Of a DNA stretch of 64,000 nucleotides, positions 21,274 to 23,885 are shown one piece after another (the first letter of the stretch is position 1; every line of letters starts with the position of its first letter). The DNA is from Gemmatimonadales bacterium. Its GTDB lineage: Bacteria > Gemmatimonadota > Gemmatimonadetes > Gemmatimonadales > GWC2-71-9. Made by a program: the position numbers and the translations under genes. The stretch is taken from NCBI GenBank assembly GCA_036505055.1, contig DASXUE010000021.1, forward strand, positions 42,467 to 106,466, given 5' to 3'. Below the pieces are notes generated by a model that saw only the letters and a list, made by a program, of their open reading frames with translations, was not told the origin of the DNA and did not search any database.

Positions 21274-23885
21274 GACTTCACGAACCGCTTGACGATCGCG
21301 GGGGTCTGCTCGCGAGTCGAGGACAGCAGCGTCGCATCGCCGATGCCCGCCGAGGCGAAATGCGGCCGCCCGCCACCTTTGCCTCCCACGGTGGAGGCGA
21401 TGGCGTTCACGATCTCTCCGGCCTTCATTCCCTGCGAGACGAGGTCGTCGGTGACGGCCACATGGATCCCCGGGCGCTCGCCCTTGGTGAACAGCACCGA
21501 GATAGCACGCTTGTGCTTGGCGCGGAAGCCGTCCATCAACGCCCCGATCTGGGTCCGATCGTCCAGATCGCTGTCACCGACGTACAACTCCACGTCCCCG
21601 ATCCGCTCCACCGGCCCCCGGTCCCCAGGCCCCGGTCCCCGTTTCAACAGCTCGTCGATCTGTTTCTCGAGCTTCCGGTTCTCTTCGAGCAGCGCATCGA
21701 TCCGCCGCGCGAGGTGCTCGGGTTGCGCCTTGAGCAAGCTCGCCGCCTCGTTCAGCCGGCGCGCCAGGTCGATCACGTAGCGATACGCCGCCGGACCGGT
21801 GAGCGCCTCGATGCGGCGGACGCCCGCGGCCGCGCCCGTCTCGTGCGTGAACCGGAAGAGCGCGATCTGCCCCGTCGTGGGCACGTGCGTGCCCCCGCAC
21901 AGCTCGAGCGACACGCCCCTTCCCACATCCACGACGCGCACGACGTCGCCGTACTTCTCCGTGAAGAACGCCATGGCGCCGGCGGCGATCGCTGCGTCGT
22001 ACTTCATCTCGCGCGTCTCGACCGGGAGATTCTCCCAGACGTGCTGGTTCACTTCCTCCTCGATCCGTCCGAGGACGTCGTCGGCGATCGGGCCATGATG
22101 GCTGAAGTCGAACCGCAACCGGTCCGGGGCCACCACCGACCCGGCCTGCCGCACATGGGTGCCGAGGACCTTGCGGAGCGCGGCGTGCACCAAGTGGGTC
22201 GCCGTGTGATTGCGCTCGATATTGTGACGCCGCGCCTCGTTCACCTGGGCCAAGGCCGGCGTGGGCTCGAACGCCTCGCCGAAGGTCCCGACCACCGCGC
22301 TCTTTCCATCTACCTTCTCCACGTCCTCGACCGTCAACTCCCAGCCGTCGCCCTTCACGACGCCCGTGTCGCTCACCTGGCCGCCCGACTCGGCGTAGAA
22401 CGGATTCTGCTCGAGCACCACCTCCAGGCGGTCGCCCTGCTGGCGAAACGCGATCGGCTCGGTTTCCGCCGTCGTCGTGTCGTAGCCGACCCAGCGCTGC
22501 CGGCCCTTGGGCTTCACTGCCACCCATTCCCCACCCTGCGACGCCCGGATCGCCGGCATGCCCGCTTTGCGCGCGGCGCGCGAGCGATGCCGCTGCTGGC
22601 CGAGGGCGCGCTCGAATCCCTCCACGTCCACCGTCTGCCCCCGCTCGGCGGCGATCAGCTGCGTCAGGTCTGAGGGGAAGCCATAGGTGTCGTACAGCTT
22701 GAAGGCATCCTCTCCGGAGATCAACTTCGTGTCCTGCAGCTCGTCCATGCGCCGCAGTCCGCCCTCGATCGTCTCGAGAAAACGCTCCTCCTCGGCGCGC
22801 GTCACGCGCTCGATGTGGGGCTCCTTGGGTACGAGCTCCGGATAGGCATCGGCCATCTGATGCGCGACCGCACGGGTCAGCGGCGCGAGCGTCGGCTCAC
22901 GCCGGCCCAACAGCCACGCATGCCGCACCGCGCGGCGCAGGATGCGGCGCAGCACGTAGCCCCGACCCTCGTTCGACGGATAGACGCCGTCGGCGAGGAG
23001 AAACGTCACGGCGCGGGCGTGGTCGGCGAGAACCCGGAACGGCACGCCCGCCGACCCACGGTCGTACGGCTTCCCGATGATCTCCACGGCCTGGGCGATC
23101 AGCGGCTGGAACACATCGGTGTCGTAGTCGGTCGGCACACCCTGCATGACGGACGTGATCCGCTCCAGGCCGGCACCGGTGTCGACGGAAGGCGCGGGAA
23201 GCGGGATGCGGGATGCGTCAGGCTGTAGATCATACTGCATGAAGACCAGATTCCAGATCTCGAGCAGTTTCCCTTCCTCGCTCAGCGATACGAACTCGTC
23301 CATTCCAAGCGCACGCTTCCCGCTTCCCGCATCCCGCATCCCGCGGATGTCGACGAGGATTTCCGAGCAAGGCCCACACGGCCCCGTGTCGCCCATCTGC
23401 CAGAAGTTGTCCTTGTCTCCGAGGCCGAAGATCCGCGTGTCGGGCAGCCCCGTGATCTCGCGCCACAGTTGGCGTGCCTCATCGTCCGACTGATGGACGG
23501 TGACATACAGCCGGCCGGGGTCGATGCCGAGCCACTCGGCGCCCGTCACCCACTCCCAGGCGTAGCCGATGGCTTCTTTCTTGAAGTAGTCGCCGAACGA
23601 AAAATTCCCCAGCATCTCGAAGAAGGTGTGGTGCCGAGCGGTGTGGCCCACCTGCTCGAGATCGTTGTGCTTGCCGCCGGCCCGGACGCACCGCTGGCAG
23701 GTGACCGCGCGCGTGTAGTCGCGGCGCTCGAGCCCCTGGAACACGCGCTTGAACTGCACCATCCCCGCGTTCGTGAACAGCAGCGTCGGATCGTCTGCCG
23801 GGACGAGCGAGGAGCTGGGTACCTCCCGGTGGCCCCGGGCCGTGAAGAAGTCGAGGAACTTCCGGCGGATTTGTGCGGCGGTCAT
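21270..23885 (-). CDS. alaS: alanine--tRNA ligase
   Basis: ATG 23885 (MTAAQIRRKFLDFF...). Contains FTNAGMVQFK, EIWNLVFMQ, PSVDTGAGLERI, editing-domain HTATHL, and a C-terminal DHHA1-like tail. Confidence 0.95.
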   Translation of the reverse strand: MTAAQIRRKFLDFFTARGHREVPSSSLVPADDPTLLFTNAGMVQFKRVFQGLERRDYTRAVTCQRCVRAGGKHNDLEQVGHTARHHTFFEMLGNFSFGDYFKKEAIGYAWEWVTGAEWLGIDPGRLYVTVHQSDDEARQLWREITGLPDTRIFGLGDKDNFWQMGDTGPCGPCSEILVDIRGMRDAGSGKRALGMDEFVSLSEEGKLLEIWNLVFMQYDLQPDASRIPLPAPSVDTGAGLERITSVMQGVPTDYDTDVFQPLIAQAVEIIGKPYDRGSAGVPFRVLADHARAVTFLLADGVYPSNEGRGYVLRRILRRAVRHAWLLGRREPTLAPLTRAVAHQMADAYPELVPKEPHIERVTRAEEERFLETIEGGLRRMDELQDTKLISGEDAFKLYDTYGFPSDLTQLIAAERGQTVDVEGFERALGQQRHRSRAARKAGMPAIRASQGGEWVAVKPKGRQRWVGYDTTTAETEPIAFRQQGDRLEVVLEQNPFYAESGGQVSDTGVVKGDGWELTVEDVEKVDGKSAVVGTFGEAFEPTPALAQVNEARRHNIERNHTATHLVHAALRKVLGTHVRQAGSVVAPDRLRFDFSHHGPIADDVLGRIEEEVNQHVWENLPVETREMKYDAAIAAGAMAFFTEKYGDVVRVVDVGRGVSLELCGGTHVPTTGQIALFRFTHETGAAAGVRRIEALTGPAAYRYVIDLARRLNEAASLLKAQPEHLARRIDALLEENRKLEKQIDELLKRGPGPGDRGPVERIGDVELYVGDSDLDDRTQIGALMDGFRAKHKRAISVLFTKGERPGIHVAVTDDLVSQGMKAGEIVNAIASTVGGKGGGRPHFASAGIGDATLLSSTREQTPAIVKRFVKS
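23194..23344. repeat. inverted pair of (GCGGGAT/GCGGGAA)n heptamer arrays inside alaS
   Basis: Arm 23194-23217 is gcgggaa gcgggat gcgggat gcg. Arm 23314-23344 is cgc ttcccgc ttcccgc atcccgc atcccgc. The spacer is 96 nt. Confidence 0.9.

Follow-up and report, generated by a model that had tools for sequence, protein, structure and literature searches.

The window analysed here is a 64-kb fragment (~70% G+C) of a metagenome-assembled genome (MAG) of a soil bacterium in the Gemmatimonadales. It carries an alaS gene for alanyl-tRNA synthetase (AlaRS), whose closest relatives among the matches listed are Gemmatimonadales MAG proteins. Two short tandem arrays of heptamers lie within the coding sequence of this gene: on the forward strand, positions 23194-23217 read GCGGGAA GCGGGAT GCGGGAT GCG and positions 23314-23344 read CGC TTCCCGC TTCCCGC ATCCCGC ATCCCGC. 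The arrays are inverted to each other and leave a gap of 96 nt (23218-23313), in exact agreement with a first-pass annotation of this DNA. Along the gene they form a G-rich gene-5' arm (G-arm) of 4.4 units and a C-rich gene-3' arm (C-arm) of 3.4 units, which are translated as ...IRGMRDAGSGKRA... and ...PDASRIPLPAP... on the two sides of the EIWNLVFMQ segment. We find that this pair is one local example of a class of short arrays (~30 nt, ~4 G-tract heptamers) found across the clade. The arrays occupy fixed permissive sites, i.e. protein loops, inter-domain linkers and intergenic DNA, and are normally arranged as convergent pairs. At alaS the positions are fixed, the units turn over, and the two arms switch their unit jointly. 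All data were genome fragments or metagenome contigs; the loci of close relatives were gathered as contigs encoding AlaRS. Loci from related genome fragments or metagenome contigs are denoted by L-numbers.

The segment between the alaS arms is native coding sequence. It was kept in 117 of 117 relatives and in the solved structures, such that the spacer is not element-borne DNA and the first-pass description of an invariant core flanked by the arms is confirmed. The gene-3' arm aligns without gaps to DGNLTPLPAPSVDTG of the solved AlaRS 9jc7 (ydlqpdasriplpapsvdtg versus yerdkdgnltplpapsvdtg). Its last unit is formed by the universally conserved Pro-Leu-Pro codons (CCG CTT CCC), and reverse-complementing these codons (CCGCTTCCC) gives GGGAAGCGG, the gene-5' arm's inner unit. 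The 3' arm thus overwrites native codons with the codon number unchanged and is no insertion. A native spacer together with a length-neutral 3' arm excludes the insertion of a two-armed element in alaS. The loop holding the gene-5' arm is 8-9 residues longer than in 9jc7; in the array-less Gemmatimonadales L007, L009 and L010 this loop is 5 residues shorter and the 3' segment is of equal length. The gene-5' arm fills an enlarged, lineage-specific surface loop of AlaRS. We considered a clean 21-nt (three-unit) insertion for this arm and rejected it, since a loop excess of 5 or 8-9 residues is no neat multiple. No target-site duplication was found beside the alaS arms in the window sequence.

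The gene-5' arm comprises four GGG tracts and contains the putative G-quadruplex motif G3N4G3N4G3N4G3. In a repeat search the window alaS arms were only 81% complementary, because the A/T variants of the unit are placed in mirror rather than in inverted order. Outside the arms, two GTCGAC hexamers extend the predicted stem (Table 1). Further downstream in the gene lies a third, unpaired array in the linker before DHHA1; arrays built from other units occupy this linker in L202, L204, L205, L208, L209, L210, L012, L002 and L153.

Table 1. Positions in the window of alaS, its arrays and the other array-bearing features discussed in the text.
Feature	Position	Strand	Description
G-arm flanking PF05635 gene	16201..16230	+	
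PF05635 gene (23S_rRNA_IVP / four-helix-bundle, Avd-like)	16260..16661	+	133 aa; E 5.5e-23
C-arm flanking PF05635 gene	16662..16691	+	starts at the stop codon of the gene
rarA gene-3' C-arm	15506..15536	-	encodes 11-residue peptide; 94 nt from partner
rarA gene-5' G-arm	15631..15661	-	encodes 10-residue peptide
Single GGGGGAC-type array in short-chain dehydrogenase (SDR) gene	19109..19130	-	near C-terminus
alaS	21270..23885	-	871 aa; Pfam tRNA-synt_2c E 1e-187, tRNA_SAD, DHHA1
Third alaS array, unpaired	21611..21641	-	sense GGGGACC GGGGCCT GGGGACC GGGGGCC; encodes GPGPGDRGP; linker before DHHA1
GTCGAC, Val-Asp of SVDTG	23182..23187	-	complements 23351-23356; lengthens predicted stem
alaS gene-3' arm (C-arm)	23194..23217	-	sense CGC ATCCCGC ATCCCGC TTCCCGC; encodes DASRIPLPA
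alaS inter-arm spacer	23218..23313	-	96 nt native coding sequence; encodes LGMDEFVSLSEEGKLLEIWNLVFMQYDLQP including invariant EIWNLVFMQ
alaS gene-5' arm (G-arm)	23314..23344	-	sense GCGGGAT GCGGGAT GCGGGAA GCGGGAA GCG; encodes RGMRDAGSGKRA
GTCGAC, Val-Asp of LVDIR	23351..23356	-	outer portion of predicted stem
ftsK linker pair CGGGAAA / GTTTCCC	34943..35050 (34943-34967 / 35020-35050)	-	convergent; 53-nt gap

Comparing alaS among relatives revealed that both sites stay in place and that their units change. The gene-5' site is arrayed in every relative down to ~70% amino acid identity, with at least six different units: GCGGGAT/A (window, L202, L203, L001 and L204), GGGGAGC (L201), CGGGAAG (L210), GGGGGAA/C (L205 and L206), CGGAGCA (L207, L208 and L012), GGGAGAA (L209 and L211) and GGGAAAC (L153). 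A more distant member of the Gemmatimonadales, L005, carries at this site the octamer GGCAGCGG of that genome's own family. At the gene-3' site a matching complementary unit is present in the window and L204 (ATCCCGC), L201 (GCTCCCC), L210 (CTTCCCG) and L208 (TGCTCCG). Four unit types (GCGGGAT, GGGGAGC, CGGGAAG and CGGAGCA) are in this way complementary on both arms in different lineages, with perfect pairing over 24 bp in L201 (GGGGAGC/GCTCCCC) and 21 bp in L208 (CGGAGCA/TGCTCCG). The 3' unit does not match in L202, L203, L206, L207 and L211, and an array is missing or degenerate at this site in L205, L209, L012 and L001. Three copies of GCTCCCC occupy the 3' site throughout L201-L203. From a protein alignment of relatives with DGTRSPLPAP the two arms had seemed fully independent; this idea was dropped, as on the DNA level RSPLPAP turned out to be (CCCGCTC)x3.

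In L005, octamer arrays (GGCAGCGG) stand in place of heptamers at positions 210-236, 4732-4845 and 5413-5442, and its alaS 5' unit is the reverse complement of its own Pro-Leu-Pro codons (CCGCTGCC). Logan contigs, which derive from complex soil metagenomes, are interrupted where the arrays lie, and what look like joints there belong to hairpins at other loci.

For a quantitative view we counted covariation on a 12-sequence alignment of alaS (A1). Nine pairs were changed on both sides compared to 4.7 ± 1.3 in shuffles (1/500), and 65.9% of the cells of A1 were paired versus 41-51% when the partner was slid by 1-3 columns. Local complementarity of an arm to its own partner versus arms of other sequences yielded 126/20000 (p ~0.006); the local score was used because a global-overlap score, in which the flanks are penalised, was weak. 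The individual changes are also informative. Between L201 and L202 a coordinated two-base change is found in neighbouring units, which looks like conversion rather than independent point mutations. The 3' sites of the L001/L202 type and of the window type differ by closely clustered substitutions that leave the length unchanged, and every one of these raises the complementarity to the 5' arm. Our confidence in the anatomy and the covariation of the arm pairs is high.

The arrays are far too abundant to be accidental. Allowing up to 2 mismatches, the 17-mer GCGGGATGCGGGATGCG has 17 matches in the window versus 0.07 expected from dinucleotide shuffles, and all 17 fall into six arrays that form three convergent pairs: in rarA, around a PF05635 gene and in alaS. 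Arrays of period 7 number 9 in the window (0.1 expected), 61 in the 178 kb of alaS-anchored loci of close relatives (1.1 expected), 8 in outgroup Gemmatimonadales and 23 in 1.24 Mb of other phyla (4.2 expected, i.e. 1.9 per 100 kb). In the clade, as sampled by the 64-kb window and the ~178 kb of alaS-anchored loci, the density amounts to 14-34 arrays per 100 kb versus at most 1 expected; neighbouring periods showed no comparable enrichment in the same samples. Among the samples the enrichment is confined to this clade. Chance or codon-driven low complexity of a gene with 70% G+C could be invoked, given that the Pro-Leu-Pro codons (CCG CTT CCC) resemble a unit on their own. However, the 17-mer count contradicts this, the period of 7 is not a codon multiple, and the enrichment is 30- to 100-fold in this clade only, such that we consider this origin practically negligible.

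For a broader sample we scanned metagenomes for three GGGATGC units, which gave 120 loci; together with the other loci this amounts to ~1.1 Mb with 386 arrays. The array length has its mode at 30-31 nt and four whole units are found in 126 of 283 arrays, where the lower end of the length distribution is limited by the search pattern. GGG is part of the consensus unit in 221/283. Several unit families coexist within one genome fragment, among them GGGATGC, GGGAAGC, GGGAAAC, GGGGAGC, GGGGGAC, GGGAGCA and GGAATGC. Most period-7 arrays of the window (10/12) are located in coding sequence: three in alaS, two each in rarA, ftsK and accB, and one in the SDR gene. By a strict test of the G+C content at third codon positions (GC3), 20 of 77 distinct pairs are confidently coding.

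The orientation of the arms follows a nearly invariant rule. In the GCGGGAT family 52 adjacent arrays are ordered G-arm then C-arm, with a gap of at most 440 nt in 49 of them, and in the 15 arrangements of opposite order the distance is never below 457 nt. Taking any unit, 78 complementary pairs have the G-arm first versus 10 with the C-arm first (within 600 nt, ~1.1 Mb), and nearly all of these 10 consist of the C-arm of one pair beside the G-arm of the next. Since an inverted pair reads alike on both strands, the rule is that the G-rich arm lies 5' on both strands. The two arms also share their unit. At 13 mixed-family loci the consensus unit was identical on both arms in 27 of 38 pairs compared to 13.5 expected when the C-arms were shuffled per locus (0/2000). 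The coupling of units is therefore specific to the pair and not merely to the genome.

The distance between the arms is not part of this rule. The first-pass annotation had noted that the arms in rarA are likewise inverted and 94 nt apart (15506-15536 and 15631-15661), which is correct, and had taken a spacer of ~95 nt as a defined geometry. In ~1.1 Mb of related DNA the gaps were found to be continuous from 6 to 440 nt and specific for the gene, with no fixed spacing. Gaps of 94 nt belong to rarA orthologues (window, L158, L165, L166, L202 and L206) and gaps of 84-91 nt to one other gene (L095, L112, L114 and L172). Those of 214-218 nt lie in an rsmB-like gene, those of 232-242 nt in cca and those of ~430-440 nt at the PF05635 gene; gaps of 189-193 nt bracket the peripheral-subunit-binding domain (PSBD) of the E2 acyltransferase. 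The largest single group comprises hairpins with loops of 6-21 nt, and many pairs are hairpins of 70-80 bp. The clusters of gaps result from the repeated sampling of orthologous loci in related genomes, and with gaps that are continuous and gene-specific, the 96 nt of alaS and the 94 nt of rarA do not amount to a constant of these repeats. In both genes a gap of ~95 nt is the distance between two tolerant loops around a conserved core of ~30 residues.

The other array-bearing genes behave like alaS. The rarA spacer encodes GDARRxLN with the GDARR sensor motif. Both rarA arms consist of GGGATGC in six lineages and of GGGGAGC in L212 and L213; in L012 the arms are non-complementary (GGGAAGN / CCCCGTC), and L153 has no arrays. 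In cca, the GGGATGC pair of L153 is matched in L212 by a GGGAGCG pair with a gap of roughly equal size, and other relatives hold just one arm at such sites. In L202, L203, L205 and L208 the ftsK linker likewise carries pairs, whose units are either the same or different. The site of the single array in the SDR gene is a G-arm in L205 and L206 (L205:14702-14910; L206:6977-7185). In these two loci the partner arm lies past the stop codon, such that the pair brackets the last ~50 codons and the stop. The linker of the gene for biotin carboxyl carrier protein contains a palindrome without spacer (CCCCGTC / GGGGACG, 39027-39085), a very rare case in which the C-rich arm comes first.

One pair encloses an entire gene. 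The PF05635 gene of the window is bounded exactly by a convergent GGGATGC pair; PF05635 genes enclosed by arrays span 16201-16691 in the window, L202:17201-17692 and L212:3922-4424. The window, L202, L158, L165 and L166 have this cassette at the junction of zip and rarA. The site is empty in L206 and L012, where zip directly overlaps rarA (GTGA). At the filled site the overlap of zip stop and rarA start (GTGA) is found on both sides, which fits a duplication of 4-8 bp but is not clear-cut. A copy of the PF05635 gene with 79% identity is located between a G-arm and a C-arm at the intergenic site of hflX and LEA_2. For a distant homologue in L096, the upstream side bears a G-rich array of four units, and downstream the complement survives only as a remnant. 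To judge from these arrangements, the gene with its arms, or the gene inside a pre-existing hairpin loop, looks mobile.

Such a cassette raises the question whether the pairs of alaS and rarA are elements similar to MITEs (transposable elements of the miniature inverted-repeat type), with heptamer arrays as terminal inverted repeats, that were inserted whole into these genes. Terminal inverted repeats would give the strict arm order. The presence and absence of the cassette between zip and rarA with its possibly duplicated stop/start overlap, its close copy at another site, and the many 70-80-bp hairpins with 6-21-nt loops would be in line with such an origin as well. These two pairs, however, do not fit. 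The spacers of alaS and rarA consist of native catalytic sequence that is conserved, keeps the reading frame and is collinear with solved structures and with homologues lacking arrays. In alaS the 3' arm contributes no residues, and the arrayed segment of rarA is with 97 residues not longer than that of the array-less L153 (101 residues). Single arms occur at the same sites. Insertion of whole elements into these two genes thus appears very improbable. The first-pass annotation had proposed either a paired insertion or conversion mechanism or selection for a stem-loop. Of this proposal, conversion or selection for pairing is supported by the double switches in alaS and rarA and the pair-specific coupling, and paired insertion is contradicted by single and mismatched arms and by a 3' arm that adds no residues.

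Could the arms be kept complementary by selection, gene by gene, for a functional mRNA stem-loop? Such a stem-loop might serve in mRNA decay or processing, pause translation where two domains meet, or act in regulation. Folding predictions yielded -85.1 kcal/mol for alaS (z -3.75) and -106.4 kcal/mol for rarA (z -7.5), in both of which the arms would form a long closing stem, beyond all shuffles. The compensatory unit switches in both genes are in agreement with such selection, and single arrays in coding regions lean towards being G-rich on the sense strand (22 vs 9). A stem that is selected as RNA should tolerate G-U wobble, yet the sense-strand mismatches of the 20 confidently coding pairs comprise 4 G-U versus 9 A-C (small numbers), such that the idea of an RNA-specific stem is not borne out by an excess of wobble pairs. 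Partners are mismatched or missing in the essential alaS of L202, L203, L206, L207, L211, L001, L205, L209 and L012, and the limited complementarity of the window arms points in the same direction. Identical pairs are also present in intergenic DNA and on the flanks of an entire gene, and selection for a stem does not predict the strict G-arm-first order. An Rfam covariance-model scan at gathering score found no family at the arms and only two cyclic di-GMP-I (c-di-GMP-I) riboswitches elsewhere; terminator and promoter scans gave nothing relevant at the arms. We therefore regard a selected mRNA stem-loop as rather unlikely. The missing wobble excess, the intergenic pairs, the tolerance of mismatched arms, the strict order and the lack of an Rfam family together favour a process on the DNA level.

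Alternatively, the arrays themselves may be functional DNA or RNA elements, e.g. G-quadruplex/hairpin switches or tandem sites for a multimeric protein, with the C-arm modulating or neutralising the G-arm and the genes merely tolerating them. That ~4 units, i.e. four G-tracts, are held while the unit sequence turns over would be expected for such elements, as would the occupation of the same sites down to ~70% protein identity. The nearest known class of arrays, GGGNATC, prefers four units and forms G-quadruplexes in vitro (PMC4692102), and the PF05635 gene, which belongs to an Avd-like pentameric four-helix-bundle family, rides inside pairs. Some families, however, have GG tracts only (GGAGCAC, GGAATGC and GGTGTCA), and even the Xanthomonas arrays have no known function. 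The conservation of length is weak evidence in coding regions, since only three-unit changes keep the frame there. On balance this explanation seems possible, though somewhat unlikely.

The best explanation in our opinion, to which we give about an even chance and which we hold with moderate confidence, is a DNA-level templating from arm to arm that keeps the arms complementary. Slippage, or short-patch conversion with other arrays as donors, would cause the turnover of units within one arm. The changed arm would then re-template its partner, either through intramolecular strand switching of the quasipalindrome type or through gene conversion from arm to arm. The outcome would be coordinated unit switches with hybrid intermediates, and the encoded peptides would be passengers. 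Single-arm and hybrid states exist at alaS, as a two-step process predicts, and the clustered, length-neutral substitutions of the 3' site that raise complementarity favour quasipalindrome strand switching. Both the templating step and the dispensability of a gene-specific function are what we infer from these comparisons.

Several points weigh against arm-to-arm templating. The templating step was deduced rather than observed, and selection for hairpin stability also yields compensatory switches and hybrid intermediates. The sequences are related, so that the shuffles make them look more independent than they are; the complementary states that count as independent number ~4 in alaS and 2 in rarA. 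Quasipalindrome templating alone leaves the constant 5' place of the G-rich arm unexplained, and the replacement of whole units, several at once (GGGATGC to GGGGAGC), requires a homogenising process. Finally, the persistence of ~4 G-tracts through the turnover of units hints at selection on structure. A dedicated system of the clade that writes or homogenises arrays might account for convergent pairs of ~4 G-tract heptamers at fixed sites, loops of essential genes among them, whose two arms are periodically rewritten. The PF05635 gene, which is always placed between such arms and has changed between two intergenic sites, could then be either part of the machinery or a selfish passenger. We consider such a system improbable.

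Quasipalindrome-templated mutagenesis and the arm-to-arm conversion of inverted repeats have reportedly been described by Ripley in 1982 and by Lovett and co-workers. The process predicts clustered, complementary, length-neutral changes that perfect a nearby imperfect inverted repeat, which is the type of change that separates the L001/L202-type from the window-type 3' site. It is known from reporter genes and not as a genome-wide maintainer of repeats, and arm order as well as the origin of the arrays are outside its explanatory reach.

The closest known kind of the Gemmatimonadales arrays are the G-tract heptameric arrays of Xanthomonas and Nostoc. These GGGNATC repeats are tandem heptamers with tracts of 3-4 G, a strong preference for about four units and hundreds of copies per genome (Rehm et al. 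2015, PMC4692102). GGGAATC arrays of Xanthomonas form 70-75 closely spaced inverted pairs of the 'convergent' kind; single or paired type and position are conserved between related genomes, and length and sequence vary (PMC4692102). Both classes thus have in common the GGG heptamer unit, ~4 units, the abundance, the convergent pairs and a conserved position with variable sequence. The arrays described here occur in another phylum (Gemmatimonadota) and comprise several unit families per genome. The main departure is that they are frequently sited inside housekeeping coding regions, whereas GGGNATC arrays are underrepresented within the coding sequences of Xanthomonas and Nostoc (PMC4692102). 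Moreover, a joint unit switching of both arms at fixed sites was not described for that class, and in the present case native protein segments or a PF05635 gene are enclosed by the arms. Our search of the available literature found no account of such arrays in Gemmatimonadota.

Other repeat systems are more remote. Cyanobacterial short tandemly repeated repetitive (STRR) sequences are said to form heptanucleotide arrays, including one inside the RNase P RNA gene (Mazel and co-workers in 1990, Vioque in 1997). They too are lineage-specific tandem heptamers that can sit in a functional gene and extend a helix without destroying function, but they are mainly intergenic or in structural RNA and are not known to reside in frame in protein loops or to change units in pairs. 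Repetitive extragenic palindromes (REP), in the REP/REPIN-RAYT system, are similar in being genome-wide, genome-specific short repeats that form inverted doublets or long hairpins and in flanking a gene by inverted copies. They differ in being palindromic and extragenic, whereas single arms here are tandem repeats and no palindromes. Genes of the Y1_Tnp family (PF01797) near alaS in L203 and L210 had suggested a direct link to RAYT and REP; this was discarded, since they are flanked by an unrelated palindrome, GGTTAACCCCGGGCTGCCAGCCCGGGGTTAACC. These small Y1 transposase (RAYT-like) genes lie between recX and alaS (L203:9400-9925; L210:2444-2776), and the one in L203 has the palindrome GGTTAACCCCGGGCTGCCAGCCCGGGGTTAACC on both sides in the classical REP/RAYT arrangement. 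The Rickettsia palindromic element (RPE) inserts as a single unbroken palindrome and lengthens the protein by tens of residues. Like the arrays it is a selfish repeat that essential proteins tolerate in frame within their surface regions, whereas here two separate arms surround native sequence and one of them adds nothing. In intervening sequences of 23S rRNA a PF05635 open reading frame resides inside a long inverted-repeat stem. The PF05635 gene within an inverted-repeat stem is shared with the cassette, but the latter is intergenic (between zip and rarA or between hflX and LEA_2) and its stems are heptamer arrays.

Some features of the window stand apart from these arrays. Upstream of a gene with ~8 tandem repeats of 255 nt (7416-9721) lie two c-di-GMP-I riboswitch aptamers in tandem (minus strand, 10396-10485 and 10562-10651; 56 and 53 bits). 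An inverted repeat of 558 nt (12269-12826 / 13839-14396) with 78% complementarity and a distance of 1012 nt is probably made up of two paralogous gene segments that have diverged and face opposite directions. Just 3' of rarA, inverted octamer arrays of GACGCCAA and TGGCGTCA (14824-14854 / 14866-14888) are accompanied by a terminator-like T-run, and this octamer family recurs at 53123-53146.

Abundant heptamer arrays of bacteria have been known since the cyanobacterial STRRs and the GGGNATC repeats of Xanthomonas. Not reported for the known classes are persistent positions with turnover of the unit, joint switching of the arms and a near-invariant arm order. Because the Gemmatimonadales arrays reside in essential, alignable genes (alaS, rarA, ftsK, cca, the rsmB-like gene and E2), orthologous sites can be traced over many lineages. 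The switching of the arms even tracks synonymous codons of the conserved Pro-Leu-Pro motif 100 nt away. As the loops are free of constraint at the protein level, mutational drive and selected structure become directly testable against each other. For annotators and protein modellers, peptides such as GMRDAG and ASRIPHP in these proteomes are by-products of repeats at the nucleic acid level.

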